From NCBI GenBank assembly GCA_020631855.1, contig JACKGU010000002.1, forward strand, positions 22,569 to 86,568: a stretch of DNA of 64,000 nucleotides. Direction: 5' to 3'. Of the stretch, positions 21,955 through 63,757 are shown in pieces. The DNA is from Candidatus Nomurabacteria bacterium (GTDB lineage: Bacteria > Patescibacteriota > WWE3 > UBA101185 > UBA10185). Made by a program: the position numbers and the translations under genes. Position 1 is the stretch's first letter; each line of letters begins with the position of its first letter. The notes beneath the pieces are model-generated. The model did not search any database. It saw nothing but the letters and a program-made list of their open reading frames with translations, and had not been told where the DNA came from.

Positions 21955-21991
21955 GTCTAAGTAACGAAATTATAAATACAGGTAACAAAAT

Positions 21992-23534: not shown

Positions 23535-23608
23535 GCGGGATTAGTTGAAAGGCTCAACGTCACCCTTCCAAGGTGAAGATACGGGTTCGATTCCCGTATC
23601 CCGCTCCA
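23535..23608 (+). tRNA. tRNA-Gly (anticodon TCC), CCA encoded
   Basis: Acceptor GCGGGAT/ATCCCGC, anticodon stem TCACC/GGTGA, loop CTTCCAA, T-loop TTCGATT. Confidence 0.85.
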
Positions 23609-29324: not shown

Positions 29325-29357
29325 TTTTATTAAGGGGAAAATCACAAATACGCAGCG

Positions 29358-29476
29358 GTGTGTTCCTTCGCGGCGGGAATTGGAATAATGGTTCCAACGC
29401 GGGTGCGTTCACACTCAACCTGAATAACGATACGGGTAGCCAGAACAACAATATCGGCTTTCGCTGCGCCAGTGAT
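29358..29476 (+). repeat. DGR template repeat (TR)
   Basis: 119-nt near-identical copy of 31932-32050; carries A at 14 of the 15 positions where the two copies differ; AAC/AAT-rich. Confidence 0.85.
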
Positions 29477-29669
29477 GAACTTGCCAAGCACGTCTTGGTG
29501 TGCCGGATGAGTGATATGCGTTTAAGGATGCATATTCCGGATCTATATGATCACAAGGTTTTCTCCGTTTCCTGCCCATCGGTAGGGGAAAACATAATAC
29601 CTGTATCCCCGCGTCTTGTACGCAGCAGCGGCATGAGGCGCGGGGGAAATGGGTTAACTACCTCCGAGT

Positions 29670-30770: not shown

Positions 30771-30838
30771 CTTTTGCTGAGAATTAGTTATACTGAATAG
30801 TAAGAGTAGGTAGGTGTTACCTATGGTATTCAATTATT

Positions 30839-33800
30839 ATGCGTATAATACAGAGAATTAAACATTATCTGTGGGAGCCACGGTTTCATTTCAGCCGCTT
30901 TCAGTTTAATCTGGTAGCACTTGTTTTTATTGGTGTTGGTTTTGTTAGCGGCACTTACCTGGCGCTTTCCGAACTCTACCCAAAAGTTTTTGCTCTCAAT
31001 GATAGCGCCAAAGTTTGGACTTTTAATGCCGCCAGCTCCGGTGACTATACTACAAGCCAAACTGTCGTTGACAATAGTGGTGCTCATCCTACTGGGGGGC
31101 AAGTAGGGGCAAATGAACTTGCAAATCCTGCTTTTGCTTCTGATAACACCTCATGGAGTGTAGCGGCAGTCCCGCCATCTGGTTATGTGGAGGTTCCGGG
31201 TAATGCCACCTACGGAACCAGTAACTTCCTCGCAATGCAGTATGAAGCAAAATACGACTGTACTGCTACGCCTGACGGCGATGGTGATACTGCGGCTACG
31301 TGTTCGGCTCCTGCCGACTCAGGGTTGGGATTAGATTATCGTGATATCAGTGGTTTTTCTTCCAGCCGCGTTGTCTCTACAGCCAACGGCGCTCCGATTG
31401 TTCACATCACCCACACCCAGGCACTCACAGCTTGTCCTACGGGTTATCATCTGATTACTAATCCCGAATGGATGTCGATTACAAGAGATGCCGAAGCTCA
31501 AACTTCCAACTGGGCTAATGGAGTAGTCGGCAGCCTTGTGTCTGCCGGCGGCGGATTTAAACGCGGTAATGTAGGTCAGAGCGATAGCGTAAGTTATAAC
31601 GGCAATGATCCTGAATACGGTTCCGGCCGTGACAGCAAGGCCATGTTAACACTTTCTAACGGTGCTACGATCTGGGATTTATCCGGCAATGTTTGGGAAC
31701 ATGTAAAAATAAATTCTGGCGATACACTTATTCCTCAAAATCAACAGCCTACTTTAAGTATTGCTGGTGATGATGCCGCAGGAACAGGTGCCTGGGGAGA
31801 ATTCACCGAAATTTCCGGATACGGAATACTCTCGTATGACCAGATAAGACCTTCGGGTTCCTCATATAATGCAAATCACGGTGTGGGTCGCATATGGACC
31901 TACGGTGACGGTGAAACTGCCACCACCGATCGTGTGTTCCGTCGCGGCGGGTCTTGGTATAATGGTTCCTACGCGGGTGCGTTCACACTCGGCCTGTCTT
32001 ACGCTACGGGTAGCCAGTACCACGATGTCGGCTTTCGCTGCGCCAGTGATCCCGTAGGAATCTCTCAATCTTATTCATCTAGTTCCGGCGTAGCCGGCGG
32101 CGGCGGAAATTCGGTGGCTATAGGCTCTGTATCCGACGGGAAAATTTACCAGTCGGTAAATGTGGGTGATACTTCTACTTATGATTTTTCTGTTTATGTC
32201 TATAACAATACCTCCGGCAGTGAGGGTACTGTCGTTGACGGGAGCGTTGCCAGCCTATACTACAACGGATCCACAATCACTACCTCGTACGAAGCGGTGT
32301 CCGGCAACTGGTACAAGCTAACCGGAACCCTGACTGGTGCCAACGCTTCCCGCGAGTACGGTGTGTTAGTTAAAACCGGAAAAACCGTCAAGGTAGATGA
32401 CTTTACTCTCACAAAACAAGGCACTTATAGTGTCTATACCACGAGTGCTTACTCAAATGCTTTGGTAGCTACCTGGGACACCTTCTGCGAAGGCACGTTG
32501 TCCGGTTCCACCTGCACCGAAGATGCCACTCAGGGCGGTTATGGTGTTATTAAATATCAGATTTGCACGGATGACGGATCTACCTGCGAATCAGGCGGGT
32601 CATGGAAATACTGGGATGGGGCTGCCTGGCAAACAGCGTCCAATACAACTACGCATGTCAATACAAAAGTGCAACTTACCCAGACAGCCATGCAGGCGCT
32701 TCCCATTTTCTCCCAGAAGATATCCATTAAGGCGATCTTTACCTCCGGCGGAAGTGATGTCCCGTATCTTCCTCATGTTTCCATTGGTCTGACTACCGAT
32801 ACCACCCCACCCGACACAAATGCCTCTGCAGTCACTATGACCAGAAGCAATGGTGGCACAAGCGTATCCTCTAACGGCTGGACCAACAATCTCTCTCCAT
32901 ATTTTTCCTGGACAGCTGGAGCAGATAATAGTGGTGGAAGTGGCGTAAAAGGGTATTGTTTGTATTTAGGAACAGACTCAAATGGCAATCCAGCGACCAG
33001 CAAAGGACTCCTTGGGACAAGTCCTGTCTCAACAGCTGGAACAACCTGTCAGTTTATCGTTTCAGCAACATCGATTGATTTTGCTACCTCATCATATAAA
33101 GGAGGAACTTGGTTAACCACTTCAAGTGACCCTTATTATTTAAACATTAAGGTTGTAGATAATTCCGGTAATGTTTTTGGTGGAAGCTCAGAGCAATTCC
33201 AATTTCGATTTGACAATACTGCTCCAACCAATACGTCATACATTTCCTGTGCCTCTGGATCTTTTTCAAATGTGGCAGATATGAACTTTTCGTGGCCAAC
33301 TTCAGGGGGTGTTGCTTCCTCTGACACCAACGCTGGAGTTTTAGGTTGGCAATACCAGATCAACTCAACTGTTGGAACATGGCTGGGGACAACAACTGAG
33401 TCAAGCTTGGGAATCAATAATTACATACCAACCAGTGCTTCTTCCAGAACTCTTACCCAAGATCAAGATGGATCCTCGATTGTGTCTGGAAATAACATTG
33501 TGTACTTTAGGAGTGTAGACGCAGCAGGTAACACTTCAACTGACGCATCCATCAGAACCTGTAACCTCTCTTACGGTGGAGCTGCACCTGCTTTTGATGG
33601 CCTAGATGAAGTTACGGTTACGCCATCAACTTCTACCTCAAACTCATACGCTTTAAGCTGGCCGGCAGCAACGGCGACGTCGGGCCAATCAGTTGCACAT
33701 TATTATTACATGGTTAATACCTCACCTCCGTCGACATTGGCAACTTTGCAAAGTAATAGTGCTACATATATCGACAATGGCACTTCAACAACCGTTGCAG

Positions 33801-35473
33801 CTGCGGCATTATCGAATGTAAATAAGGGCAGTAATACGGTTTATGTTGTAGCGGTAGATGACGCGGATACTCCTAACTATTCTCCCTCCAACTATATAAG
33901 CGGAGCATTTACACTAAATTCTACAGATCCGGATAACGTGAGCGGCCTGGTGGCATCTGACTCTTCGATCAAGAGCCTGTCTCAGTGGAACGTAACCCTA
34001 ACCTGGGCAGCACCTACATACCAGGGTGCTGGGAATTTAACATATCTTATCTACCGTTCATCAGACGGAACCAGTTTCACTCAGGTTGGATCAACAACAG
34101 GTTTGTCTTACGTAGACAATACACCATCCTCCGCACTCTATTACTACAAGCTTTATACAAAGGATGGAGCTAATGCGACATCATCTGGTACAAATGCCGT
34201 TTCCATCACTCCTACCGGCAAATGGACAACTGCACCGTCTCTTGATTCCGGTCCAAGTGTTGGTAGTATTACCACTAAAAAAGCAACCATTGCCTGGACG
34301 ACCTCCAGATCCAGTGACTCTAAAGTGCAATACGGAACATCATCGGGAAGCTACGGAGATGTAGAGCCGAGCAACTCCTCCCAGGTCAGCTCTCATTCAA
34401 TTCAGTTAACAGGCCTTAATCCGGGAACAACTTACTATTACAAAGCTAAATGGACGGATGAAGACGGTAATACCGGTACCAGCGAAGAAAAGAATTTTAC
34501 CACGGCTGCTGCCCCCACTGTTAAAGATGTTGTTGCTAAAAATATCGGTCTTTCTTCGGCGATTATTCAATTTACTTCCAAGGATGCTTCTAAGGTGAAA
34601 ATATACTACGGCACGACGACCAGTTTTGGTGGGGCAAAAGAAATCTCAACGTCGACCTCTGAAACAACCTATACTGCTGAACTTACAGGTCTGTTGGACG
34701 GCACTAAATATTATTACAAAATCAACACTTTTGACAGCGACAACAGTGAATATGAAGGTACAGTTTTGGATTTCACCACTCTACCCCGTCCCAGAATAAG
34801 CAATGTCAGGATTCAGCAAGTGGCCAATACAGCTCAATCGACTGTTCTTGTTACCTGGATGACGAACACAGATGTTTCTTCCATTGTCACATACTATCCG
34901 GAGGAAAATACAGCTGATGCCCGAGATGAAGTTAATGTGGCTCTCACTAAAGGTGAACACCGGATGATTATCCGCGGGTTAGCACCGCAAACTAACTACA
35001 TTTTGGTAGTTAAGGGCAGGGATAAGATTGGCAACGAAGCAACTTCCGATACTCAACGAATTACTACTGCCACAGATACAAGACCTCCACAGATTTCGGA
35101 ACTCCATGTAGAAGGAGCCGCGATTCCGCCAACAGCCTCCACAGCTCAGGAATCTATGGCGCAGCTTATTGTTTCCTGGAATACAGACGAACCATCAACT
35201 TCACAGGTTGAATTCGGAGAAGGCACAGGCACTACGTACTCATCAAAGACTCAGGAAGATAGTAACCTGACGTATAATCACCTGGTTATTATTTCCGGCC
35301 TGACTCCGAGCAAGGTCTACCATGTACGAACTATCTCAAAAGATAAAGCCGGGAATACAGGAAACTCAATTGACACGGTAACCATAACTCCTAAAGCGAC
35401 TGAAAATGCTCTGAATCTTGTCATTACTAATTTACAGGAAGCATTTGGGTTTCTGGGAGGATTAACTAAATAA
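30839..35473 (+). CDS. DGR target (variable) protein: N-terminal TM anchor, FGE-sulfatase/C-type-lectin-fold domain carrying VR, long Ser/Thr-rich region with FN3-like repeats
   Basis: 1544 aa; TM at residues ~22-45; GNVWEHV and RGGSWYNG...GFRCASD FGE/CLec motifs; VR at 31932-32050; C-terminal repeated IAWTTSRSSDSKVQYG...TTYYYKAKW FN3-like modules. Confidence 0.8.
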   Translation: MRIIQRIKHYLWEPRFHFSRFQFNLVALVFIGVGFVSGTYLALSELYPKVFALNDSAKVWTFNAASSGDYTTSQTVVDNSGAHPTGGQVGANELANPAFASDNTSWSVAAVPPSGYVEVPGNATYGTSNFLAMQYEAKYDCTATPDGDGDTAATCSAPADSGLGLDYRDISGFSSSRVVSTANGAPIVHITHTQALTACPTGYHLITNPEWMSITRDAEAQTSNWANGVVGSLVSAGGGFKRGNVGQSDSVSYNGNDPEYGSGRDSKAMLTLSNGATIWDLSGNVWEHVKINSGDTLIPQNQQPTLSIAGDDAAGTGAWGEFTEISGYGILSYDQIRPSGSSYNANHGVGRIWTYGDGETATTDRVFRRGGSWYNGSYAGAFTLGLSYATGSQYHDVGFRCASDPVGISQSYSSSSGVAGGGGNSVAIGSVSDGKIYQSVNVGDTSTYDFSVYVYNNTSGSEGTVVDGSVASLYYNGSTITTSYEAVSGNWYKLTGTLTGANASREYGVLVKTGKTVKVDDFTLTKQGTYSVYTTSAYSNALVATWDTFCEGTLSGSTCTEDATQGGYGVIKYQICTDDGSTCESGGSWKYWDGAAWQTASNTTTHVNTKVQLTQTAMQALPIFSQKISIKAIFTSGGSDVPYLPHVSIGLTTDTTPPDTNASAVTMTRSNGGTSVSSNGWTNNLSPYFSWTAGADNSGGSGVKGYCLYLGTDSNGNPATSKGLLGTSPVSTAGTTCQFIVSATSIDFATSSYKGGTWLTTSSDPYYLNIKVVDNSGNVFGGSSEQFQFRFDNTAPTNTSYISCASGSFSNVADMNFSWPTSGGVASSDTNAGVLGWQYQINSTVGTWLGTTTESSLGINNYIPTSASSRTLTQDQDGSSIVSGNNIVYFRSVDAAGNTSTDASIRTCNLSYGGAAPAFDGLDEVTVTPSTSTSNSYALSWPAATATSGQSVAHYYYMVNTSPPSTLATLQSNSATYIDNGTSTTVAAAALSNVNKGSNTVYVVAVDDADTPNYSPSNYISGAFTLNSTDPDNVSGLVASDSSIKSLSQWNVTLTWAAPTYQGAGNLTYLIYRSSDGTSFTQVGSTTGLSYVDNTPSSALYYYKLYTKDGANATSSGTNAVSITPTGKWTTAPSLDSGPSVGSITTKKATIAWTTSRSSDSKVQYGTSSGSYGDVEPSNSSQVSSHSIQLTGLNPGTTYYYKAKWTDEDGNTGTSEEKNFTTAAAPTVKDVVAKNIGLSSAIIQFTSKDASKVKIYYGTTTSFGGAKEISTSTSETTYTAELTGLLDGTKYYYKINTFDSDNSEYEGTVLDFTTLPRPRISNVRIQQVANTAQSTVLVTWMTNTDVSSIVTYYPEENTADARDEVNVALTKGEHRMIIRGLAPQTNYILVVKGRDKIGNEATSDTQRITTATDTRPPQISELHVEGAAIPPTASTAQESMAQLIVSWNTDEPSTSQVEFGEGTGTTYSSKTQEDSNLTYNHLVIISGLTPSKVYHVRTISKDKAGNTGNSIDTVTITPKATENALNLVITNLQEAFGFLGGLTK
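31932..32050 (+). repeat. DGR variable repeat (VR) inside target gene
   Basis: 15 mismatches to TR, 14 at TR adenines; identical 3' end GGCTTTCGCTGCGCCAGTGAT (IMH-like). Confidence 0.85.
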
Positions 35474-40796: not shown

Positions 40797-41966
40797 ATGC
40801 CAGCATCAGCAACAGGAATCAGAGGTTCAGGTAATTTAGGGGCAACCCAAAAGTATGACGTCGCGGACGTTGTATCGCTATTGGATGTCAACCGATATCC
40901 ATTGATGGCGATACTAACAAACGCTGGTAAAGATCCAGCAACCGGCGAGGGCGAAGCACTCAAAAAGAAAGAATCCACCGACCCAGAATTCAAATGGTTT
41001 GAAGATGAGTTTGGAAAGCGACAGCTAACAGGCTCAAGCACTGTCGATCCGGATGGCGGGAACTTAACTGTCACAGGGCAATCACAGTATCTTCAAGTCG
41101 GTGACATCATCTTGGTGTCTTCACAGAAATGGGTCTTTCAGGTAACCGCAATCGTAGACGCAAACACTGTAACAGTTGGTCCCGAACTCGGTGGAGCAAC
41201 AGGCTCGGCTGCATCAGCAGTCGGAGACGTCTGGCTCATTGGTAATGCCAATGAGGAAGGTGCAGGTCTGCGAGATATCAAATCGACCACCATTGCCGAA
41301 GTGTCCAACTATTGTCAGATCTTCAGAACTCCAGTCGGTATCACAGAAACTGCCCGAAATACTCAAGGATGGGTGAAAGAAAATGACTTTGACTATCAGA
41401 GGCGCAAAAAAGGTATTGAACACTATGTCGATATCGAACGCACATTTATCTTTGGTAAAAAAGGCATTCTTACTTCTGGAACTCACCCCAAGAGGTTCAC
41501 AAGCGGAATTCTAGGAAGGATTGCTACTTACGCCACTGCCAACGTTGACACCGAGTCTGAGTTTGACTCATGGCTCGAAAGTCTCTTTGCACACGGCAAC
41601 ACTGAAAAATATCTCTTTGCTTCAGCTTCGGTCGTTTCGATGATCAATGGCTGGGCAAAAGGAAAACTCCAAGTAGTCAACCCGACCAAGGCCTACGGAC
41701 TCAGAATCGTTACTTACGACTCTCCACACGGCACACTGCACATCATCAAGCATCCGCTCTTAATCGGAACAACCTACGGAAACTACGCCGTTGGGTTGGA
41801 CATGGAAGCTTTGACATACCGCTATCTGACAAATCGTGACACCAAGCTTATGACTAATCGTCAAAACCCTGGTGAAGATAGTCAGGTCGATGAGTACCTA
41901 ACCGAATGTGGACTGCAAATGGAGCAAGAGCAACGCCACGCCATTATGAGTATCGGCGCTCTTTAA
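40797..41966 (+). CDS. putative major capsid protein (HK97-fold-like)
   Basis: 389 aa; strong GGAGGTG SD; position after scaffold; overall resemblance to lambda gpE-like coat proteins (judged from memory). Confidence 0.45.
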   Translation: MPASATGIRGSGNLGATQKYDVADVVSLLDVNRYPLMAILTNAGKDPATGEGEALKKKESTDPEFKWFEDEFGKRQLTGSSTVDPDGGNLTVTGQSQYLQVGDIILVSSQKWVFQVTAIVDANTVTVGPELGGATGSAASAVGDVWLIGNANEEGAGLRDIKSTTIAEVSNYCQIFRTPVGITETARNTQGWVKENDFDYQRRKKGIEHYVDIERTFIFGKKGILTSGTHPKRFTSGILGRIATYATANVDTESEFDSWLESLFAHGNTEKYLFASASVVSMINGWAKGKLQVVNPTKAYGLRIVTYDSPHGTLHIIKHPLLIGTTYGNYAVGLDMEALTYRYLTNRDTKLMTNRQNPGEDSQVDEYLTECGLQMEQEQRHAIMSIGAL

Positions 41967-43650: not shown

Positions 43651-43962
43651 ATGCAAGAAAGCGATGTAGCACTACTAGAACAAATCATAAAAGCCATAGT
43701 CGCAAAGCCGGAAAAAGTTGTTATCGAAAGAAAAGTCGACGAAATGGGAGTCCTGTTATCAGTCCGACTAGATGACAAAGACGCGGGTGCCTTAATCGGC
43801 AGAGGCGGTGAAACCATAGCAGCAATCAGAAGAATTATGAAGCTCGTAGGGGTCAAAGCCAACGCACGAATAAACATCAAGTTAGATGTTCCGCGCAGAA
43901 GCAAAAACGACTATGAAAAACCAAGTATTGAAGATCAAAGTAACAATCCAAGAGAACTCTGA
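43651..43962 (+). CDS. KH-domain RNA-binding protein (KhpA/YlqC UPF0109-like)
   Basis: 103 aa from ATG with AAGGAGGTGA SD; VKAIVAKPEKVVIERKVDEMGVLLSVRLDDKDAGALIGRGGETIAAIRRIMKLVG contains GxxG KH signature. Confidence 0.5.
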   Translation: MQESDVALLEQIIKAIVAKPEKVVIERKVDEMGVLLSVRLDDKDAGALIGRGGETIAAIRRIMKLVGVKANARINIKLDVPRRSKNDYEKPSIEDQSNNPREL

Positions 43963-45577
43963 TGACGGCAAAGAAGCTGGGTCTTCGACTTGGAATAAAG
44001 ATGGTAATGCTTCAAACGTTATAACTTTGGGAAACTTCACCGGCGCTCAAACCGGTGCATTGCGATTTCGTGCTATCGATATTCCAAAGTTTTCAAAAGT
44101 TCTCCTAGCCAGGCTTCGTCTTCGCCCTGCAATCACCGATGAGACTGACTTTACAGTTAACCTGAAGATTAAGGGAATTAAAGAACCAGACCCCGCCCCA
44201 TTCAAACCAAACGGCTCAAATCGTCCATCCACTAGAACCAAAACAATCAACGCAGTCGATTGGGACATTATCAGAAAATGGAACGTCCACGAATGGGTTC
44301 AAACACCAAACTTGAATCTAATCGTGGAAGAACTCATTTCTCAAAGTGGCTGGAAGCCAGGTAATTCATTAGCCTTTGTCATTGAGGATGACGGTAGCCC
44401 AGCCGATCAATCAAAAACCTGTTATGACTCCAGCAAAGGTGAAGGTTACCAGGCAGAACTTGAAATTTACTATCTCCCTCAAGGATTGCATGAACAAGTC
44501 ACGATCGGATTAATCCAAGGCAACGATCGGGATGGTGAAGAAGATTATAAAAGCACTTGGTATCCAAATGGTTTTCAGAACAATATGACCACCTTTGGAG
44601 ATGATGGCAGTCTAGATCCAGAGCAATCACCCAACGATGCTGGTTTTATTTTCAGCCCGATTGCAATTCCTAAAAGAGCAGAAATTATTTCAGCAAAGAT
44701 ACTTGTAACCAGTCCTTTCCAAAACAACGGCATGCCAAATGTTTTAATTAAAGGTCTGGCTGAAGATGATGCTGCAGTCTTTGTCTCCAATGGCTCAAAT
44801 CGTCCTTCGCTACGCAATAAGACGAACGCAAAGGTTCAGTGGAACTTAGGACATGCCGAAGCAGGTGTGCTTATAGGAGATCACTGGACTGCAGAAAGTG
44901 CCTACGAATCACCAGAGCTCAAAGATATTATTCAAGAAATTGTTGACCGCCCAGGTTGGGCAGAAAGCAAGCTTGGACTTGTGCTGGAGAACTATAACTC
45001 CGGACACGGAAACACAAAATACATTTGGGACTATAACCAAGATTCAGGTAAATACGCTCCTCGACTACTTATAGCCTGGACAAAAGAACGCAGAGTAACC
45101 GCCAGAGACAAAGACGTGGAGACTTTCAATAAAGCTAACTACCCCGAGTTTATTATTGTCCACCATTCAGCCACTCCTCGGGATAACACCCGCTTTGAAA
45201 CGATTAAGAAGGCTCACATCGGCTTTGGTTGGGATGATATCGGATATCACAAATGGATAGCCGGAGCCCTTGACGGAGATGGTGTGTTGATCTTAGGCCG
45301 ACCAGACAATGTTATCGGTGCTCACTGCGACAGCAACAAAATGAATTACCGCTCATTAGGAGTAGTTTTGTGCGGCAGCTTCCATAACAGTGAAACCCCT
45401 ACCTCCGCCCAACTGACAACTTTGCAGAAAGTTCTAGACGACTTGCGCCAAGAAAGAAGTATTCCAAAAGAAAGAGTTTTCGGTCATGGGGAAGTTCCTG
45501 AATCAGCTACAGATTGTCCAGGCAATGCCATCTTGCCCTATGTCCAGAGATATAGAGCGACCGGAAGTTTGCAATAA
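43913..45577 (+). CDS. tail protein with two paralogous receptor-binding-like domains and C-terminal N-acetylmuramoyl-L-alanine amidase (Amidase_2/PGRP) domain
   Basis: 554 aa from MKNQV (start chosen by homology to 43050 paralog); C-terminal FIIVHHSATPRDN...GWDDIGYHKWI...GAHCDSNKMNYRSLGVVLCG matches Amidase_2. Confidence 0.6.
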   Translation: MKNQVLKIKVTIQENSDDGKEAGSSTWNKDGNASNVITLGNFTGAQTGALRFRAIDIPKFSKVLLARLRLRPAITDETDFTVNLKIKGIKEPDPAPFKPNGSNRPSTRTKTINAVDWDIIRKWNVHEWVQTPNLNLIVEELISQSGWKPGNSLAFVIEDDGSPADQSKTCYDSSKGEGYQAELEIYYLPQGLHEQVTIGLIQGNDRDGEEDYKSTWYPNGFQNNMTTFGDDGSLDPEQSPNDAGFIFSPIAIPKRAEIISAKILVTSPFQNNGMPNVLIKGLAEDDAAVFVSNGSNRPSLRNKTNAKVQWNLGHAEAGVLIGDHWTAESAYESPELKDIIQEIVDRPGWAESKLGLVLENYNSGHGNTKYIWDYNQDSGKYAPRLLIAWTKERRVTARDKDVETFNKANYPEFIIVHHSATPRDNTRFETIKKAHIGFGWDDIGYHKWIAGALDGDGVLILGRPDNVIGAHCDSNKMNYRSLGVVLCGSFHNSETPTSAQLTTLQKVLDDLRQERSIPKERVFGHGEVPESATDCPGNAILPYVQRYRATGSLQ

Positions 45578-45582: not shown

Positions 45583-46287
45583 ATGCAATTACAAGAATTT
45601 AGACAAGACTTAAACGCCAGAATGACCGCCTCTAAAGTAAGCGGTTTCTGGAAAGATGCTGATAAAGATCGCTGGATTAACAAAGCGATAGTTCGGGCAT
45701 GCAATTTTGCTCGTTTTAAGTTCCTAAGCAAACACGCCAGTCAACTCACAGAACTAAATCCTGATGGCTCAGGTAAAGAATCGTACTTCCTTCCTTTCGA
45801 CTTTAAGCCAGGTGGCATGGTTTTCCTCTCTGTGGATGGCGAGGAGTATCACAAAGCTTCCGAGAACCAATATCTAAGCCGTAAATCAGATAACAAGATA
45901 GCTCCCACTTTTCATCCCTCACTCGACATAGTTCACCCATCTCTTCACACAGACTGGCGATGGCAAAAAATCTACGCCGCAATCGGAGATCAATATTTTA
46001 TAGATCCTCCGGCTGATGTTGCTGGCAAAGTAATCGACCTCTTTTATAAACGCCGCCCAGTCCGACTCGTTGAAGAAACTGATGAACCAATTACTCCAGA
46101 GGAACTTGATGAACCGATTTTGAAACTGGCATTAGCAACCTGTCTAGCAAAAGAGCCAGGGAGAAAAAACGAAGCAGAAAAAGAAGTTATTGAAGCTCAC
46201 GCCTTATTACAACAAACCAAAGATCGCGAGGACGAGGAACCATCGGCCGTCTTCGTGGGGCAGGCAAAAAGCACCCGATGGTCATAA
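45583..46287 (+). CDS. hypothetical phage protein
   Basis: 234 aa. Confidence 0.4.
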   Translation: MQLQEFRQDLNARMTASKVSGFWKDADKDRWINKAIVRACNFARFKFLSKHASQLTELNPDGSGKESYFLPFDFKPGGMVFLSVDGEEYHKASENQYLSRKSDNKIAPTFHPSLDIVHPSLHTDWRWQKIYAAIGDQYFIDPPADVAGKVIDLFYKRRPVRLVEETDEPITPEELDEPILKLALATCLAKEPGRKNEAEKEVIEAHALLQQTKDREDEEPSAVFVGQAKSTRWS

Positions 46288-47741: not shown

Positions 47742-49076
47742 ATGTTGACCAAAGATATTAAGAAAATAGTAACAAATCGAGAAGTTGAGGATCAGCCATT
47801 TCCTGAGGTAGTGCCTCATACCCACAATGGAGTTGACTCACCTGCTCTTGGTGCAAATACTGTCGACAGCGTCAATATAAAACCAGGAGCTGTCGGAGAT
47901 AACGAGCTTGACGATTTTTCGGTCACAGAACAGAAACTAGCAGAGGCAGCCGTTGCGACACAAAAGATCCAAGATGATGCCATTACCGCCGCAAAAGTTT
48001 ATAAAGCAGGATCCGTTATTACCGTCTCTGCTCAAATTGCAGAAGCAATCATTCTTACCGCTCATATAGGAACCGCCCAAATTACTAATGCCAAGATCGC
48101 TAATGCTTCAATCTCTACAGCAAAAATCCAGACAGCCGCAATCACAAATGCTGAAATAGCAGATGCAGCGATTACGAATGCAAAAATAGGAGCTTTAGAA
48201 GTTGGTAACTCACGAATAGCCAATGCTGCTATCAGCACTGCCAAAATTCAAGATGCAGCCGTGACAAATGCCGAAATTGCTGACGCGTCTATCACTAATG
48301 CCAAAATTGGTGCGCTAGAAGTTGGCAACTCTCGTATTGCAAACGCAGCCATAAGTACAGCCAAGATTCAGGATCTGGCAGTTACAGATGCCGAGATCAA
48401 CGACTTAAACGCTGGGAAGATCACTGCTGGCTCAATGAGCGCTGAACGTATTTACGGAGGGACTGGATACTTCACCAGAATTAACATCTTGATGTCGGGA
48501 TTAGAAGCGTTGAATGTCGCTGGGAATATAAATAAATCCGGAACATCAAACTTCTCTATTCCTCATCCATTGAAAAAGGGCCATAGATTGGTTTATACTG
48601 GTATTGAAGCAGCAGAAGTTCTCCTCGTTCATCGAGGGACAGCCACTCTAAGTAACGGACAGACACGAATTGACTTCCCAGACCACTTCATAGCGGTCAG
48701 CGATCCCAGAAACATTACAGCATATCTGACTCCCAAGCAAAACTGCAACGGACTTTTCATTGTCGAAGTAACAAACGACCATCTTGTCGTGCAAGAACTG
48801 CAAGGAGGAATATCCTCCGCTCAGTTTGACTACATGGTCGTCACAGTCCGCGACAAATTCTTCGACTTTGATTTTGAACCTGAAGGCGACATTGCGATTA
48901 AACGTGATGACGAAGATGAGGAAACTTTCAAGCAACGCTATCTGGAACACCGAATAAACGAGATTACCAAAAAAGGTGGTCCCAAAGTCCAGGAGCAAAT
49001 TGACCAACTACGGAGTGAATTTATCACCACAGTTGGCAGAAAGGAGATCGCAGGCAATGTCAAAAAAACAAACTAA
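47742..49076 (+). CDS. tail fibre-like protein with tandem ~40-aa repeats
   Basis: 444 aa; repeated AAITNAEIADAAITNAKIGALEVGNSRIANAAISTAKIQD units. Confidence 0.5.
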   Translation: MLTKDIKKIVTNREVEDQPFPEVVPHTHNGVDSPALGANTVDSVNIKPGAVGDNELDDFSVTEQKLAEAAVATQKIQDDAITAAKVYKAGSVITVSAQIAEAIILTAHIGTAQITNAKIANASISTAKIQTAAITNAEIADAAITNAKIGALEVGNSRIANAAISTAKIQDAAVTNAEIADASITNAKIGALEVGNSRIANAAISTAKIQDLAVTDAEINDLNAGKITAGSMSAERIYGGTGYFTRINILMSGLEALNVAGNINKSGTSNFSIPHPLKKGHRLVYTGIEAAEVLLVHRGTATLSNGQTRIDFPDHFIAVSDPRNITAYLTPKQNCNGLFIVEVTNDHLVVQELQGGISSAQFDYMVVTVRDKFFDFDFEPEGDIAIKRDDEDEETFKQRYLEHRINEITKKGGPKVQEQIDQLRSEFITTVGRKEIAGNVKKTN

Positions 49077-56794: not shown

Positions 56795-57095
56795 ATAAAA
56801 CGGTAACTACTCCACCGAGAAATTGTTCCTACAATAAAGAATAATCTTTAATGTAGGTTACGGGTATTATACAATACATCGATCTCGAGAAGTTCGCAAC
56901 ATCAGAAAGTGACAGAAACAACCTTGTATCTACTAGGGTAAAAGAAGTAAAATAAGGATGTTATTGATAGGCGGCGGCGAAAGATTCAATGCCAATATGT
57001 TCTTTAAGAAAACTAAGCTGGAGTTCCAAACTAGGCTCGATAAGAGGTCTTAGGTTCGAGCAAAGTACGGTGACCAGCTCCAAATTCTCCTACAT

Positions 57096-57872
57096 ATGCA
57101 AAAAAGCAAACTACCACCAAGTATAAGGTCAATAAGCAAATCCCCGATAGATCAACAAAAAATCATAAATGACATCCAGCAAGAACTGATAAACAATATA
57201 GACAAAAAATATAAGCTATCTTCTCTAAAATTTTATAAACACAAAACACACAATTACGGAGTGAAAACCCCATTAGTAAGAAAAATTGCAATAAAGTATT
57301 TTCGAGAAATAAAAAGCCTAAATAAAAAACAAATTTATGAAATTTGCGAAAATCTGTTGAAAAATAGAAGCAACGAAGAAGCAACTATATCCATACAGTG
57401 GGCAGGAGCTACTTCAAAAGACTTTACTGAAAAAGATTTCAAAATATTTGAAAGCTGGCTTACAAAATACATCGACAACTGGAGTAAAGACGACGATTTC
57501 TGTCTGCATATACTGAATCCGCTCTTAAAAATGTACCCAAACCTGATCGCACACACAAAAAAATGGGCTATGTCAAAAAATATGTGGCTTAGAAGGGCCT
57601 CAGCAGTTTGTATGATATCCTCGGACAAATCAATGTATGTATCGGAACATTCTTTAAACGATATATTTGAAGTATCAATAAAGCTAATGGGCGATCGAGA
57701 AGACCTGGTACAAAAAGGCTATGGCTGGTTACTAAAAGCAGCTTCGATACGCAAGCAGAGAGAAGTGTTTGATTTTATTATAGAAAATAAACTCAAAATG
57801 AGCAGAACCTCCTTAAGATATGCTATAGAGAAAATGCCTCCGGAACTAAGAAAAAAGGCTATGGAGAAATAA
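57096..57872 (+). CDS. DNA alkylation repair (AlkD/AlkC-like HEAT-repeat) protein
   Basis: 258 aa; helical-repeat architecture resembling the DNA_alkylation family; assignment from overall pattern only. Confidence 0.35.
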   Translation: MQKSKLPPSIRSISKSPIDQQKIINDIQQELINNIDKKYKLSSLKFYKHKTHNYGVKTPLVRKIAIKYFREIKSLNKKQIYEICENLLKNRSNEEATISIQWAGATSKDFTEKDFKIFESWLTKYIDNWSKDDDFCLHILNPLLKMYPNLIAHTKKWAMSKNMWLRRASAVCMISSDKSMYVSEHSLNDIFEVSIKLMGDREDLVQKGYGWLLKAASIRKQREVFDFIIENKLKMSRTSLRYAIEKMPPELRKKAMEK

Positions 57873-57904: not shown

Positions 57905-58330
57905 TTACGAATTTTGCTCAAGATAAGACACAAAGAAATCTTTCAAAACTTCTGGGTGAACTTCCATGTTCTTAAAATAAGAGGGGATAACCCATACAGG
58001 TCTGACAAGTAAATTAGGATTTTCTTTCAAATGCTTTATTTCCACCTCATCTAAAAGCTCGGGCTCGCCGCTAACGTATTCGCAAAGATATAAAGATTGC
58101 TCGCACTTTCTTAAAGGATCGTAGGCTGAAAAAAGAAATTTAACAACCTTTGCTTGAATGGAGGTTTCTTCATAAAGCTCACGTAAAACGGTTTGCTCTA
58201 AAGTAGCGTCGGTTTCCTCATAGGTTCCTCCGGGAATTGTTAGATATACAGCACCATTTTTATACTTTAGCAACACTAACACCATGCCGTCTTTTATAAT
58301 CAGAGCTCTAGATTTTTTAGCAGATTTCAT
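57905..58330 (-). CDS. NUDIX hydrolase
   Basis: 141 aa; Nudix box GGTYEETDATLEQTVLRELYEETSI. Confidence 0.75.
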   Translation of the reverse strand: MKSAKKSRALIIKDGMVLVLLKYKNGAVYLTIPGGTYEETDATLEQTVLRELYEETSIQAKVVKFLFSAYDPLRKCEQSLYLCEYVSGEPELLDEVEIKHLKENPNLLVRPVWVIPSYFKNMEVHPEVLKDFFVSYLEQNS

Positions 58331-58409
58331 GCGAACATAATAACATACTAGGCAACAGCTTGGTTTAACAAGATTGATTATTACTATTTTATAATTTCGT
58401 TACTTAAAT

Positions 58410-58508
58410 CTACTTGTGTTAGCTATAGAAGCACTTTACTTAATATGCTCGGCTTTTCGGCGAAAAGAAATTACAGCAAACCATCTGCATAAGTTGGTGG
58501 TGGTTGAT
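58410..58508 (+). repeat. ~100-nt intergenic repeat element, copy C
   Basis: CTACTTGTGTTAGCTATAGAAGCACTTTACTTAATATGCTCGGCTTTTCGGCGAAAAGAAATTACAGCAAACC...TAAGTTGGTGGTGGTTGATA; hairpin with T-tract follows at 58571-58604. Confidence 0.6.
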
Positions 58509-58570
58509 AAGTTCGGCGTAGGTTTGTGTATTATTTTTAGCGGTTTTAGGTTTTTTGGTTGTTTATTTTT

Positions 58571-58604
58571 GAGGGCGGGCTGAAAGCCCGCCCTCTTCTT
58601 ATCT
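58571..58604 (+). terminator. GC-rich hairpin with flanking T-runs (intrinsic terminator-like)
   Basis: GAGGGCGGGC-tgaaa-GCCCGCCCTC; preceded by GTTTATTTTT and followed by TTCTTATCT. Confidence 0.45.
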
Positions 58605-58677
58605 ACCATCTTATTATTATTGTTCCAGTCCCCTGCCCTTTAATACCTCTCCCCGAGTCGTTTTCTAGGACTTTTTT

Positions 58678-59643
58678 CTATGCTTGCTGCTTAAGGTTTT
58701 TGCTGTCTTTAACAACAGTTTTCTTGTTCTCGGCTAATTTTCTTATGAAAAGAAATACGCCTAAGGCAGGTACCCATATCACCGAGAAGATCGCAATCTT
58801 AACTGCCAGCTCAGTGATGCTTTGCAAGGATATTACTAAGGATCTTATTGCTTCTTTAACAACAGTTTTAAAGCTCCAGCCGTTATTTGGTATGTATGGC
58901 AAGGTGTTTTCATTCGTGGCGACATAGATTGTTATCAAGTTAGTTTGTGATTGTTTTTCAAGCATGCGCATCTGTCCTTCTATTCTATCTATTTGTTTTT
59001 GTGTGTTTGTTATTGCCTGTTGAACTTTAAGAACTTCGTTAACATCTGTCGTAGTGGTTAAAAGGCCATAGAATATCTCGTTTGCTTTTTGTAAAGGTTC
59101 TAGCTGTTTTTCGTAGTTTGTATAAGAGTCGGTAATGTCTCCTACGTTTATTGTCTCGGTGACTACTCTAAGTCCGAGGGATTTTACTTCTTTTACAAAA
59201 AGATCTTTATTTTCCCCCGGTATCCTTACAGTTATTGATCCGTAAGAATTCTCTTCACCATTGCTTATGTCTTTTGTAACAAGGTAGCCTTTAGCTTTGT
59301 TTTGAGCAATTTCTTGAATATCTAAAACAGCTTTATTCACATCAAGCACTACCATTGATAGCATTGATTCCACTTTGTACATCATTGAAGATGAGGCTGG
59401 CGAAATCTGCGCTTCGTCTACTCCCGTCTCAAAAGTTACGCCTTTGTTATAATCTGCCGCGAAGTCTCTTGTATTACCCACGTAGTTTATATCACCCACG
59501 CCTCTCATATGAGAGGTATAGTAAGGTTTTTGCATCCAACCGCCGTTTGCGCCTAATCTATAGGCAAAAAAAGCAGCTACTAAGACTATAAGTGTTGTTT
59601 TATGGTCTTTTATAAGTTTAAGCAGACTATCTTTTAAATGCAT
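58678..59643 (-). CDS. hypothetical secreted/membrane-anchored protein
   Basis: 321 aa; N-terminal LIVLVAAFFAYRLGA TM/signal. Confidence 0.45.
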   Translation of the reverse strand: MHLKDSLLKLIKDHKTTLIVLVAAFFAYRLGANGGWMQKPYYTSHMRGVGDINYVGNTRDFAADYNKGVTFETGVDEAQISPASSSMMYKVESMLSMVVLDVNKAVLDIQEIAQNKAKGYLVTKDISNGEENSYGSITVRIPGENKDLFVKEVKSLGLRVVTETINVGDITDSYTNYEKQLEPLQKANEIFYGLLTTTTDVNEVLKVQQAITNTQKQIDRIEGQMRMLEKQSQTNLITIYVATNENTLPYIPNNGWSFKTVVKEAIRSLVISLQSITELAVKIAIFSVIWVPALGVFLFIRKLAENKKTVVKDSKNLKQQA

Positions 59644-60329: not shown

Positions 60330-62123
60330 TTATAGCACTCTTACCGGGTCTTTTTGGCACCAGCTTCCTACATAAGCTTTTTTTCCGACTAAATTATATA
60401 TTATTGACGTGTACTCCTTATTAAGTTCTATTTCCTTGGTGTGTTTTTTAATGTTAGGTAAGTTTGGCTTTCTACTCTCAAAAATTCTTGGGTTTTTCAG
60501 AAAGATTGGTCTTTCAGGATTCAGTAAGGACAGCATTCTAGTTGCTTTTATATTTTGATCGATCGTGTAGTCATCTACAAAACATCGATATAGGCCTGAG
60601 AAATCTAAGTGTGTCCCAGTCTCAAAGAAATTATTTTCGATAACGTATTTTATATAAGAATCATCTACATAGATTTGAGATGACACTAAATATTTTTCGG
60701 AAATTTTCTGGGCCTGCTCCCATTTAATTCTTTTAATTTGTATGTCGTCTAAAGACAGTGCAAAAGTAATAAAAACAAACAAAATACTTACTGCTACAAA
60801 AAGGTGCTTACTATATTTTTGCGCGACATTTTTCTTATCATCGTATATTGAAAAAAGATACAAAATAAAAATTAAAGATGCCGGTGCTAAGTATCTGTCG
60901 TAAAAGTCGCTTGATACTATAGTAAAAGATAATAAAAATACCGTGGAAAAAAGTAGATAAAGCGACTCTTTACCTTTTTTTATAGCGTTGAGTATTTTTT
61001 TGCGTTCTGCTAATGTGATTTCTATAAGATTAATTATCCCAATAGAAATCAAGAAACTAATAAATAATTTAAAGAAGCTGTTGTCAAAAAGACTCTCGTT
61101 TTGTGCATAGTAATTTTTTGCATACAACTTTTCTACATAAAAAACATTACCCATTGCAAAGTTGTCGTGGGGGAATAGCAAATTTACGGCTAGAAAACTC
61201 GCAACTATAGCTTTAATGAAAAAATAGCGCATTTTATTTTTTACTCCCATGGTTAGGGTTAAAGGCAACGTAAAATATATAAAATAAGGTATTATTCTCC
61301 ATAGCTTTGCGATTCTGCCTGATAGTTCCTCTACACTAAGTAGTATTGTACTTTTAACGTATGAAGAAGCCTCTGCGTCCCTGTAGGTTGGCCATGCCAG
61401 CCAAATTCCAAGCCCCAGTAAGGGAAGAAACAAAAGAATTACGAGCTGCTTGAGGGGGACATATTTTAAGGTTTTAAATAGGTTTTTGCCCGACAGGCTG
61501 CTTTTTTTGAAATTAGTGTAAAAAGTATTATATATCTCTGATCCCAGTGCGTAAGCAATGAAAGTGTTTACCACAGCCAAAAGACCTACCTGTCGGACAA
61601 GCACAGAGGCTGCAGCTAATAACATGCTTATATATATATTTTTAACATTTTTACTTTTAATATAAGCGAGTGAAAAATATGTGTTCCAGATTAATATAGA
61701 AATAAAGTAATTCTCAGACATATATGAGAAGGTGGAGCTGTACAGAATAGGATTAAAAAGCATTAATAAGAATGTTGCGCCTAGTATTGTATTGGAGACC
61801 TTTGCAGGCTTAAGAAGTTTCAGTATTTTATAAAATCCAACCCCTCCCGTAATAGTAATTAAAAGGGTGAGAAATCTTATTGTTTCGAAAGAATAACCGA
61901 ATATTCTAGACCAGATCACTCCGGCTACCCCTTGTAAGATAAAAGACATGTCAAGTTTTTGTTGCAGCGCGAAATCCCCGGCCAAAAACATCTTGAGTTG
62001 AATATGCATTACCCAGTCGTCATTTACAACATAGTTACCTCCAAGGCCAATAATAAGAATTGATGTTACAAATAACCCTAAGCATGAAAAAAGAGTCTTA
62101 TGTGATATGAGTATATTTTTCAT
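60330..62123 (-). CDS. GT39/GT83-like (PMT/ArnT-type) polytopic membrane glycosyltransferase
   Basis: 597 aa, more than 10 TM helices; architecture like dolichyl/undecaprenyl-phosphate sugar transferases; overlaps upstream gene by 4 nt. Confidence 0.4.
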   Translation of the reverse strand: MKNILISHKTLFSCLGLFVTSILIIGLGGNYVVNDDWVMHIQLKMFLAGDFALQQKLDMSFILQGVAGVIWSRIFGYSFETIRFLTLLITITGGVGFYKILKLLKPAKVSNTILGATFLLMLFNPILYSSTFSYMSENYFISILIWNTYFSLAYIKSKNVKNIYISMLLAAASVLVRQVGLLAVVNTFIAYALGSEIYNTFYTNFKKSSLSGKNLFKTLKYVPLKQLVILLFLPLLGLGIWLAWPTYRDAEASSYVKSTILLSVEELSGRIAKLWRIIPYFIYFTLPLTLTMGVKNKMRYFFIKAIVASFLAVNLLFPHDNFAMGNVFYVEKLYAKNYYAQNESLFDNSFFKLFISFLISIGIINLIEITLAERKKILNAIKKGKESLYLLFSTVFLLSFTIVSSDFYDRYLAPASLIFILYLFSIYDDKKNVAQKYSKHLFVAVSILFVFITFALSLDDIQIKRIKWEQAQKISEKYLVSSQIYVDDSYIKYVIENNFFETGTHLDFSGLYRCFVDDYTIDQNIKATRMLSLLNPERPIFLKNPRIFESRKPNLPNIKKHTKEIELNKEYTSIIYNLVGKKAYVGSWCQKDPVRVL

Positions 62124-63637
62124 TGTAGTCGCCTGTAGATATTAATTGTTTTTTCTTCGGGAGTAAAAATAGTGTATTCCTTTGAATAGTAAAAAGGATC
62201 ATCTATGTCTGTCTGCACCGATTTCGCGTTTTGCATCTCCTGCGAGTCCTCCACCTCTATGAAGTATTGAGGAGCTTCAAGGAACAATGTTAGGGGCTTT
62301 AAATAGAATTCGGCAACGGTATTGTTATCGTTTGTTTCAAAATTTCGAGTTTTTTCTACAGGCAAGGGCCCCAGCAAATATTCTGCGATTTTATCCCACG
62401 CCCTGTTGTAAGGAAAGCCGTATAAGAAGAGCTGGGATTTATCACGGTCAATTTTATCTAGGTTGATGCCGTATATGTTGGTATCTTCCCATGGATATTT
62501 TTTATTTACTGAGGGCGTGAAAATTAAAGATATGTAAAAAATACCAACGGCGAGAGCACTGCAGATAAGTGCATACAATAGGCTTTGTTGTTTTTTATTA
62601 TTAGGAATTGCGGATAGTTTCTCTAGGCCAATTGCCGACACAATAATCAAAGGAATTATGTAATTTAGTATATGAGTCCCCGGCCTTGAGAATATAAACT
62701 CAAAAAGTATAAATGGTATTAAAAACCAAACTAAAATTATATAGGTATGCGTCGATGCCCTTACATTTCTGTTTAAAAAAGATTTAGCTGCTGTAATTAT
62801 ACCTAAGACAGGTAGAAAGTAAGCAAAAACAAAAGGGTTGTAAACGTAAAAAGTATACAGGGAGTTATTTGGGAGTTGGTTTATTCCGTTGAGCCTCTTT
62901 TGCAAGTAGCTCAGTGTGTTTTCCTGGAAGAAACCTTTGATAATGTACGGTATATAGAAAGCTGCCGCAATGAGAGCGGCCATAAAAAGAAAAAGTAGCA
63001 AGTTATTAGTTAAATTACGCTTATCGGAAATATTTTTAGTTTTTGATAGTTTGGTAGCAAAAACGAGAATTATTGGAATAAAAATAAAAATTCCATCGTA
63101 GTGAGACAGGAGTGCTAACCCGGCAGATATGCCGGCTAAGGTAAGTGAGAAAACACCTAGAATTTTTTTATTATAAGAATTGCTCGCAGACTGCAGTCCT
63201 ATAAGAGTTAAATACAGCGCTAGAAAGGAAAAAAAATGCACCATGCTTTGATATTGCGCGGTGCGACTAAATGCTATAAAAAATCCGTTTGATAGGTATA
63301 TTAATGTTGCTATGAATCCTGTTTTATTATTGAACATTTTTGAAACTGCGCCGTAGAAGAAAATTGTTGAGGCTAGACCTGCTACTGCAAAGGGCAGTCT
63401 CATAAATTGTTCCGAGTAACCCCCGGTAATTTTCTCCATGCCCCAGGTCGCTATAAATTGCATTGGGCCTTTTCTTTGATTAAGTAAAAATTGTATTGGG
63501 GTAAGGTATTTGTCGGTATATAAAGCTTTTGTTTCATCTCCGTAATAGTTTGAATACCCTAAATTACTAAAACGAGGCGGCAGGGCTAAAAGCAAGATGA
63601 CTATTACTGGTATTATTATTTTAAGTTTTTTTCTCAT
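62120..63637 (-). CDS. GT39/GT83-like (PMT/ArnT-type) polytopic membrane glycosyltransferase
   Basis: 505 aa; first loop YYGDETKALY resembles DE motif of GT-C transferases; many TM helices. Confidence 0.45.
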   Translation of the reverse strand: MRKKLKIIIPVIVILLLALPPRFSNLGYSNYYGDETKALYTDKYLTPIQFLLNQRKGPMQFIATWGMEKITGGYSEQFMRLPFAVAGLASTIFFYGAVSKMFNNKTGFIATLIYLSNGFFIAFSRTAQYQSMVHFFSFLALYLTLIGLQSASNSYNKKILGVFSLTLAGISAGLALLSHYDGIFIFIPIILVFATKLSKTKNISDKRNLTNNLLLFLFMAALIAAAFYIPYIIKGFFQENTLSYLQKRLNGINQLPNNSLYTFYVYNPFVFAYFLPVLGIITAAKSFLNRNVRASTHTYIILVWFLIPFILFEFIFSRPGTHILNYIIPLIIVSAIGLEKLSAIPNNKKQQSLLYALICSALAVGIFYISLIFTPSVNKKYPWEDTNIYGINLDKIDRDKSQLFLYGFPYNRAWDKIAEYLLGPLPVEKTRNFETNDNNTVAEFYLKPLTLFLEAPQYFIEVEDSQEMQNAKSVQTDIDDPFYYSKEYTIFTPEEKTINIYRRLQ

Positions 63638-63660
63638 GTTTTATAACTTCGTTAATTAAA

Positions 63661-63757
63661 ACTATTGCGCAAGCTATAGATGTAGTTTACCCAACATGTT
63701 GTGCTTTGTAACGCAAAAAACTACAGCAACCACCTGCGTAAGCTGGTGGTGGTTGAT
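63661..63757 (+). repeat. ~100-nt intergenic repeat element, copy D
   Basis: ...CAAGCTATAGATGTAGTTTACCCAACATGTTGTGCTTTGTAACGCAAAAAACTACAGCAACCACCTGCGTAAGCTGGTGGTGGTTGATA. Confidence 0.6.

Follow-up and report, generated by a model that had tools for sequence, protein, structure and literature searches.

A 117-nt gene-less repeat in a Candidatus Nomurabacteria genome, probably a palindrome-associated transposable element of the IS200/IS605 type

Results

Five copies of an intergenic repeat in the window

The stretch of DNA analysed here (64,000 nt of contig JACKGU010000002.1 from Candidatus Nomurabacteria bacterium, hereafter the window) carries five copies of a repeat, named A to E in this text from the lowest to the highest coordinate; the copy letters used in the initial annotation do not follow coordinate order. 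All five lie between open reading frames, as had been noted, and each consists of the pentanucleotide TTTAT followed by a gene-less unit. Copy A (6921–7041, plus strand; TTTAT at 6921–6925, unit at 6926–7041; 122.7 bits, 78% identical to the consensus) is located between divergent genes with a gene start at 7091, 49 nt downstream, and its hairpin 3 is degenerate. Copy B (14437–14558, plus strand; TTTAT at 14437–14441, unit at 14442–14558; 134.6 bits) is located between convergent genes. Copy C (21856–21976, minus strand; TTTAT at 21976–21972, unit at 21971–21856; 131.1 bits) begins 16 nt past the stop codon of the minus-strand gene 21992–22930, and the repeat finder listed it as the inverted repeat I1, 89% identical to copy D. 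Copy E (63640–63757, plus strand; TTTAT at 63640–63644, unit at 63645–63757; 126.7 bits) is 2 nt from the start codon of the divergent gene 62120–63637 and 89 nt upstream of a glycosyltransferase gene. The copies are present where the initial annotation had placed them, but the homology starts about 22 nt further 5', at 6921, 14437, 21976 (minus strand), 58388 and 63640. Their relatedness is confirmed by a pairwise identity of 69–88% and by a mean column identity of 79% in the alignment of the five, which the repeat finder also recovers; the most alike pairs are neighbours (copies C and D, 88%; copies A and B, 77%). Moreover, a degenerate pattern of 33–34 nt matches precisely these five sites of the window, with 0.00 matches expected from shuffles.

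Copy D, whose two neighbour genes are both on the minus strand, occupies 58388–58508 of the plus strand (141.8 bits with the covariance model). Its 5' flank TTTAT (58388–58392, plus strand) lies outside the mobile unit and is the putative target and left cleavage site. The unit itself, AATTTCG...GGTTGAT, covers 58393–58508 (plus strand) and has 116 nt here against 117 nt in the consensus, its limits being given by the alignments of 10 and 17 copies and by the tandem junction GTTGAT|AATTTCG described below. A candidate left guide, AAAT in this copy and AAAA in the consensus, is placed at 58406–58409 (plus strand) by analogy with IS608 (PMC3201880, PMC5934647). It is followed on the same strand by hairpin 1 (58410–58428; consensus CTACT-T-GC-GTAA-GC-T-AGTAG), which in the single-stranded DNA fold of the consensus forms the presumed left-end imperfect palindrome, by the central hairpin (58453–58467), read directly as CTTTTC-GGC-GAAAAG, and by the candidate right guide GCAA (58476–58479), the four bases 5' of the hairpin 3 foot. 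Hairpin 3 (58480–58501; consensus ACCACC-T-GC-GTAA-GC-T-GGTGGT) is the presumed right-end imperfect palindrome, and the terminal TGAT (58505–58508), where the homology ends in all copies, is the putative right cleavage site. The central-hairpin sequences quoted earlier agree with the DNA. Outside the repeat, 62 nt downstream of copy D, there is an intrinsic-terminator-like hairpin with a T tract on the plus strand (58571–58604), for which the terminator scan gives 11 pairs, 9 of them G-C, followed by TTCTTATCTA. As the initial annotation stated, it has the form of a plus-strand terminator with no plus-strand gene upstream, and it is unidirectional, an A run following on the minus strand.

Ends and architecture of the mobile unit

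The limits of the mobile unit are given by a head-to-tail dimer between gyrB and holB (L024:14614-14852), which reads TTTAT|AATTTCG...GTTGAT|AATTTCG...GTTGAT|CTATG and is found in three independent assemblies. Its two units differ at 1 nt in 117 (99% identical), and the second of them follows TTGAT, the terminus of the first unit, not TTTAT. Since TTTAT is not repeated in the dimer, it lies outside the mobile unit as a conserved flank, and the junction fixes the unit as AATTTCG...GTTGAT. In the consensus, the unit is 117 nt long (AATTTCG...GGTTGAT) and gene-less, and because of this length it has no ORF of the size of a transposase gene. The homology ends sharply on both sides, beginning with TTTATAAT and stopping after GGTTGAT, and TTTAT precedes 15 of the 18 units known. 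The TTTAT target and the AAT of the element together form a TATAAT box at the insertion junction, which is conserved at the 5' edge.

Terminal inverted repeats are absent, the 5' end (AATTTCGTTAC) having no match with the reverse complement of the 3' end (ATCAACCACCA), and so is a target-site duplication, the 12-nt flanks of all 17 loci showing no direct repeat. The unit carries two near-identical subterminal hairpins, 1 and 3, in direct orientation on the same strand. They match at 22 of 31 positions and have in common a 10-nt apex, TGCGTAAGCT, which includes a conserved T-T mismatch, while their stems differ by two compensated pairs (U-A to C-G exchanges). Their placement is asymmetric: the foot of hairpin 1 stands 17 nt inside the left end, and 7 nt separate the foot of hairpin 3 from the right end. 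The consensus folds as single-stranded DNA with -23.8 kcal/mol (z = -4.2), and 0 of 200 shuffles fold as well. The picture is that of a structured master copy, which the consensus approximates as the ancestral element, with descendants that are decaying. 

The cleavage-site complementarities depend on a register that is borrowed from IS608 and was read after the fact. In this register the consensus left guide AAAA is complementary to the flank TTAT, and the right guide GCAA, aligned in like manner, faces the terminal TGAT with T:A, G:C, a purine-purine contact and T:A. The second guide base pairs with the second base of the cleavage site on both sides (A:T left, C:G right).

Two other features of the unit are regarded as incidental. 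An E. coli Chi octamer (GCTGGTGG) in hairpin 3 is taken to be a coincidence, since roughly half of the copies have lost it and its decay is no slower than that of the remaining sequence. An internal ORF of 15 codons (MLGFAxQRNYSKxPA) was rejected as coding: it is frame-shifted in 2 of 10 copies examined and has no Shine-Dalgarno sequence. A tally of alignment column counts gives 33, 18 and 22 variants at its codon positions 1, 2 and 3, respectively, the first position being the most variable.

Family size and distribution

The search with a covariance model bore out the expectation of further copies, and the family grew from 5 to 17 loci (18 elements when the dimer is counted as two) in about 150 kb of non-prophage DNA from one organism. 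This total comes from the covariance model, built on 10 copies and run on the available flanks, together with a pattern scan of a metagenome collection, in which 9 stretches matched and 5 of them were new copies. The proteins encoded beside the new copies map to one of two contigs, the 629,590-bp one that contains the window and a 520-kb one from a sister assembly, and thus all copies come from one organism. The neighbours of the new copies are single-copy housekeeping genes (mraZ, tsaD, gyrA, gyrB, relA, lepB, L21/L27).

The density is one locus per 9 kb (17 loci in about 150 kb), or about one per 13 kb once the copies used for the choice of regions are left out. For a host genome of at least about 1.15 Mb, this extrapolates to copies numbering on the order of a hundred, which would make up about 1% of the genome. 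Bacteria of the candidate phyla radiation have very small genomes, which are generally regarded as streamlined. Here one gene-less element recurs roughly every 9–13 kb, and its neighbours include core genes, among them gyrA/gyrB, relA, mraZ and those for ribosomal proteins and tRNAs. The leading matches of a literature search for such repeats in candidate-phyla-radiation bacteria held nothing relevant.

The covariance model found no copy in the 33-kb prophage inside the window. Conservation in related genomes, one of the expectations attached to the earlier description, did not appear, since 66 kb from the three nearest relatives has zero copies; these relatives are distant (ProRS 61–65% identical, GyrA at most 70%). 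A scan of a species-representative genome collection gave a single chance match, in a cyanobacterium, and three scans of viral contigs gave either no match or a chance match within unrelated sequence. In addition, no homologues were found for a DUF4349 gene that adjoins the repeat. The family seems to be confined to the source lineage. Hairpin 1 or hairpin 3 alone does not occur elsewhere in the scanned sequence, and no empty site or presence/absence polymorphism was seen, every locus compared across assemblies being occupied.

Genomic context and strand bias

The 17 loci are distributed over all types of intergenic space: 6 are between convergent genes, where they directly follow a stop codon, 5 are between divergent genes and 6 are between co-directional genes, with no orientation bias in the last group (3 sense, 3 antisense). 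Downstream of 8 copies, a same-strand gene lies at a distance of 30–330 nt. No common function links the flanking genes, which include those for a thiol-disulfide protein, a glycosyltransferase, relA, mraZ, GH1, ribosomal proteins, gyrB and tRNAs.

The orientation with respect to base composition is biased. In 13–15 of the 17 loci, the top strand of the element is the locally G-rich strand (p = 0.001–0.025, depending on flank size), in a test on local skew, which is also shaped by gene orientation, and on neighbouring loci, which are not independent. On the mapped contig, all 5 copies at 225–280 kb are on the plus strand, where the GC skew is +0.10, and 7 of 9 copies at 415–552 kb are on the minus strand, where the skew is negative; the two exceptions in the latter region sit in segments of locally positive skew. 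Judged indirectly, from skew as a proxy for a mapped origin and terminus, the top strand appears to be preferentially on the lagging-strand template.

Structure and substitution pattern of the copies

The central hairpin had been said to co-vary between copies, in favour of a conserved structure. We find one compensated pair (G-C to U-A), in the copy at 58388, whereas the hairpin is mismatched in three copies (6921, 14437 and one outside the window) and wholly lost in another; hairpin 3 is degenerate in two copies. With a structure of three hairpins and a short helix, 17 copies give 3 double-change pairs against 2.9 in shuffles (302 of 500 shuffles as good), and 14 copies give 2 against 1.9 (300 of 500 as good). 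Both for RNAalifold and for the hand-made structure of three or four hairpins, the covariation of 5, 10, 13, 14 or 17 copies never rose above that of shuffles. In a set of five paralogous repeats, a single compensated pair does not amount to evidence for a structured RNA. Furthermore, the folding energy of 4 of the 5 window copies is not better than that of shuffles.

The substitutions are distributed in a manner close to neutral. A neighbour-joining tree gives 204 substitutions over 122 columns with a dispersion index of 1.16 (p = 0.11), and the events per column are 1.68 at paired and 1.67 at unpaired positions. Once the greater mutability of G/C columns is taken into account, regional rate differences are borderline (p = 0.051), and the copies show no conspicuous conserved seed. 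The consensus has three G-U pairs, and variant cells in stems comprise 35 G-U versus 26 A-C (strand test, p = 0.15).

A canonical terminator within 160 nt was present in 1 of 13 copies examined, the one at 58388, for which the initial annotation had suggested a terminated small transcript; the copies thus have no terminator in common. The copies have no -35 box in common at a consistent spacing, and no consistent U tract follows hairpin 3. Comparison with Rfam gave no match for the repeat, either at gathering thresholds over the whole window or in permissive E-value mode over 58330–58680, where the weak matches stemmed from the terminator. There is no good evidence for the copies as a conserved structured RNA family. 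The evidence speaks against the proposals of small RNAs or cis-regulatory RNA structures as a property of the family, with no significant covariation, no common terminator, no Rfam match and no orientation bias between co-directional genes.

Discussion

A probable element of the PATE kind

Taken together, the absence of terminal inverted repeats and target-site duplications, the direct subterminal hairpins, the dimer, the IS608-like geometry and the strand bias lead us to regard the repeat as probably a non-autonomous IS200/IS605 element, a 'palindrome-associated transposable element' (PATE). The earlier observation holds in part: the repeats are real and the covariation is not, and its interpretation survives through the branch that spoke of a mobile repeat, though not of a classical MITE or REP, the architecture being that of a PATE.

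PATEs are known from Haloquadratum walsbyi, and PATE-like elements from Geobacillus stearothermophilus (PMC3119063, PMC10055086). The repeat resembles them in having no terminal inverted repeats and no target duplication, in being too short for a protein, in its similar near-terminal palindromes, in the conserved 5' targeting oligonucleotide of 4–5 nt, in the longer distance from the 5' end to the palindrome and in its many diverged copies. The same asymmetry, with the 5' end-to-palindrome distance longer than the 3' one, is described for PATEs (PMC3119063), and a conserved 5' flank, as the target and left cleavage site, is a hallmark of the IS200/IS605 family (PMC3201880, PMC3119063). The repeat differs from described PATEs in that it has no sequence similarity to them, it is carried by a bacterium of the candidate phyla radiation whose genome measures about 1.15 Mb, and the parent IS605-type transposon or TnpA was not found in about 290 kb.

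The closest geometric parallel is with IS608 of Helicobacter pylori, the paradigm of the single-strand 'peel and paste' transposition of the IS200/IS605 family (PMC3201880, PMC5934647). In IS608, cleavage takes place 19 nt 5' of the left foot and 10 nt 3' of the right foot (PMC3201880), and the four bases 5' of each foot guide the cleavage by pairing, AAAG with TTAC (PMC3201880, PMC5934647). The repeat likewise has direct subterminal imperfect hairpins at both ends and four-base candidate guides directly 5' of the feet, with the putative left cleavage site outside the element (17 nt versus 19 nt in IS608) and the right one inside (7 nt versus 10 nt), and its TTAT/AAAA mirrors the TTAC/AAAG of IS608 with one compensated position. 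Unlike IS608, which is about 1.8 kb in length, the repeat measures 117 nt and lacks both tnpA and tnpB; its hairpin sequences are unrelated, and it is known here from its sequence. A further parallel is found in ISDra2 of Deinococcus radiodurans, whose natural target is the pentanucleotide TTGAT (PMC8612924). This is the same as the right end of the repeat and as the site before the second unit of the dimer, although the usual target of the repeat is TTTAT, and no TnpB to accompany it was seen in about 290 kb. 

Other explanations

Most of what was said against an RNA family bears on the possibility that the copies are paralogous genes for small regulatory RNAs, each with its own TATAAT box and three hairpins, two of them with the same GNRA-like loop, whose mode of action would be base pairing or the binding of a dimeric protein. 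This would account for the conserved TATAAT at the 5' edge, for the intergenic position of every copy and for the unidirectional plus-strand terminator after the copy at 58388, where there is no other plus-strand gene to terminate; the three consensus G-U pairs and the 35 G-U against 26 A-C cells lean weakly to the top strand, and the top-strand bias could equally mean transcription co-oriented with replication. But the covariation is not significant with 13, 14 or 17 copies, for four window copies out of five the fold does not surpass that of shuffles, stems and loops change at an equal rate without a conserved seed, and the central hairpin is missing in one copy and hairpin 3 degenerate in two. 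The terminator is present within 160 nt in only 1 of 13 copies, and Rfam has no match. Moreover, the conservation begins exactly at the -10 box with no common -35, and the dimer puts TTTAT, half of the 'promoter', outside the duplicated unit. We consider such genes improbable. Even less can be said for a cis-acting RNA of the flanking genes, whether a leader or riboswitch-like 5' UTR, for which the 8 copies with a same-strand gene downstream could be cited, or a common terminator or 3' UTR module, which would suit the 6 copies directly past a stop codon between convergent genes. The genes on either side have no function in common, both neighbours are opposite in strand to the element at three copies and on its strand at three others, no consistent U tract follows hairpin 3, and the structure is under no visible constraint, which leaves this reading very improbable and already close to refuted.

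It is also unlikely, in our judgement, that the repeat is some other dispersed repeat, a REP-, BOX- or ERIC-like structural or regulatory DNA unrelated to IS200/IS605, which owes its dispersal to recombination or an unknown enzyme and its homogeneity to gene conversion. A length of about 120 nt, an exclusively intergenic position, the richness in hairpins and a number of the order of a hundred per genome would fit it, the likeness of adjacent pairs (C/D and A/B) hints at local copying or gene conversion, and no transposase was found in the approximately 290 kb examined. However, it leaves unexplained the conserved 5' pentanucleotide outside the duplicated unit, the asymmetric placement of two like direct hairpins, the complementarities of guides and cleavage sites including the mutated guide of the dimer, and the strand bias. 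Neither do the known classes suit: REPs are palindromes of 20–40 nt, usually in inverted pairs, and inverted ends with target duplications mark Correia elements and classical MITEs; nothing of this is present here. With the classical MITEs and REPs (Correia elements, REP/REPIN and the Coxiella MITEs; PMC3184786, PMC5896051), the repeat shares its small size, its lack of coding sequence, its many intergenic copies, its hairpins and a possible role as a donor of promoters or small RNAs; MITEs are able to give rise to small RNAs (PMC5896051). It differs from them in lacking terminal inverted repeats and any target duplication, of TA or otherwise, and in having hairpins that are direct, not inverted. 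A classical MITE, including the Correia type, is ruled out on the absence of terminal inverted repeats and target duplication; a REP or REPIN, a GC-rich palindrome of 20–40 nt, usually in inverted doublets and associated with RAYT, was rejected for a unit of 117 nt with direct hairpins and no solo hairpins.

A possible mode of transposition

For the PATE reading, we propose that a Y1 (HUH) TnpA transposase, supplied in trans, would mobilise the element as single-stranded DNA. TnpA would bind both near-identical subterminal hairpins on the top strand, and the guides, the four bases 5' of each foot, would recognise the cleavage sites by base pairing, AAAA with the left-hand TTAT and GCAA with the right-hand TGAT. 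The top strand would then leave as a circle and be pasted 3' of (T)TTAT, preferably in the lagging-strand template and with no target duplication. [quoted passage not shown] Most copies would be old insertions, now in about neutral decay. Among the Pfam-annotated or scanned genes of about 290 kb (of at least about 1.15 Mb), the prophage included, there was no Y1 transposase, no TnpB and no full-length insertion sequence with the same ends; the prophage genes were considered as a source of the transposase, and none was found among them.

The dimer bears on the role that the guides would have. A left guide of ACAA, with an A-to-C change, is found only in the dimer copy, whose second unit sits after TGAT, and the combination of this guide with this site agrees with the prediction of the IS608 retargeting rule. 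On this reading, the dimer would be a natural example of the rule that the guide resets the target, with TGAT used instead of TTAT. The dimer could otherwise have arisen by illegitimate recombination at a 2-nt microhomology, in which case the guide mutation would match by chance, an outcome with a probability of very roughly a few percent. Among the old copies, three whose guides are mutated (D, J and C) still follow TTTAT, and they are uninformative if their mutations post-date the insertion. The tandem insertion, with units 99% identical, is the only recent event seen in the family.

Possible transcription of single copies

The TATAAT box at the junction may drive read-out transcription in a PATE, the copy at 58388 with its downstream terminator being an example. 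Judging from the sequence, this copy may be transcribed, which is made plausible by its TATAAT box, its minus-strand neighbours and the plus-strand-only terminator 62 nt downstream; the argument concerns this one copy and not the family. PATEs often carry omega or right-end RNAs (PMC10055086). One might go further and suppose that the element is still active, and that the junction TATAAT drives an RNA of about 120–200 nt through the right end into the flank, either as an omega/right-end-RNA-like guide for a nuclease of the TnpB or IscB type acting in trans or, at 58388, as an exapted small regulatory RNA. We hold this to be improbable; if true, the repeats would be not just relics of a transposon but also RNA genes with a function.

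The repeat also leaves its mark on assembly and annotation. Metagenome assemblies are broken by the element, one contig stopping inside the dimer, and the internal ATG of one copy has been annotated as a gene start.

Prophage at the tRNA-Gly gene

A prophage of 33.5 kb (23600-57104) has inserted at the 3' end of a tRNA-Gly gene (23535-23608). A direct repeat of 31 nt (23600-23630 and 57074-57104) marks its two borders, and a contig of another assembly (the accession number in ENA: ERZ27248703), which is otherwise 99.9% identical, does not carry it. Among the products of the prophage are a large serine recombinase (minus strand, 23541-25148), a HEPN protein (26851-28413), an SU10-type major capsid protein (40797-41966), an amidase (43886-45577), an adaptor (45583-46287) and a protein of 1556 aa that contains an LPD38 domain. 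Moreover, the prophage ORF at 47742-49076 includes a 60-nt periodic repeat in five copies (48095-48368), in whose 34-nt core the copies are 68–74% identical to a reference copy; this periodicity suggests that the product is a repetitive structural, fibre-like protein. In addition, the prophage carries a diversity-generating retroelement (28986-35473), with bAvd at 28986-29324 and a reverse transcriptase at 29670-30770; its template repeat lies at 29358-29476 and its variable repeat at 31932-32050, within an ORF of 1544 aa (30839-35473). Fourteen of the 15 mismatches between the template and variable repeats fall at adenines of the template repeat.

Another tRNA gene in the window is also accompanied by a repeat. 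The 3' end of tRNA-Leu (CGAGTCCCTCCTCGCCCACCA..., 20515-20547) recurs 148 nt downstream (20663-20695) with 85% identity, and this may be a trace left by a further integration or excision event at such a gene.

Arrangement and neighbourhood of the element copies

The most similar pair of copies of the element is formed by copies C (21856-21976, minus strand) and D (58388-58508, plus strand), which share 88–89% identity and lie in inverted relative orientation. In the prophage-free strain they are about 3 kb apart, with a Pyr_redox gene, an ORF of 149 aa, the tRNA-Gly gene, a DNA_alkylation gene and a NUDIX gene between them. Such a pair could support inversion or gene conversion.

Outside the window, two units of the element are joined head to tail between gyrB and holB (stretch L024:14614-14852, likewise L025 and L031:11090-11328). 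This dimer occurs in three independent assemblies, and its units differ by 1 nt in 117. The end of one JGI contig (L011/L032) falls inside the dimer, which therefore breaks an assembly. At another locus (stretch L017), a copy at 18646-18772, which begins 4 nt past the terminal CCA of a tRNA gene, overlaps the start of a gene called at 18704. An internal TAA in this copy is mutated to TAC, and thus the internal ATG of the element has been annotated as the start codon of a gene for a GH1 glycosidase. About 30 nt past the copy there is a TTG codon with GAAGGAA ahead of it, and this looks more likely to be the start of the gene than the ATG within the element.

The 3' arm of hairpin 3, the right subterminal hairpin of the element, contains the Chi octamer of E. 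coli (GCTGGTGG) at 14544-14551, 21864-21871 (minus strand) and 63743-63750, on the strand that is mostly G-rich. We regard it as a coincidence, since only about half of the copies retain the octamer intact and it decays no differently from the sequence around it.

Lineage of the organism

Among 5.8 billion proteins, no relative of the ProRS or GyrA of the window organism exceeds 65–70% identity, and its lineage is therefore isolated. NCBI records do not agree on the label for identical proteins from this organism, giving some as ‘Candidatus Nomurabacteria bacterium’ and others as ‘candidate division WWE3 bacterium’.
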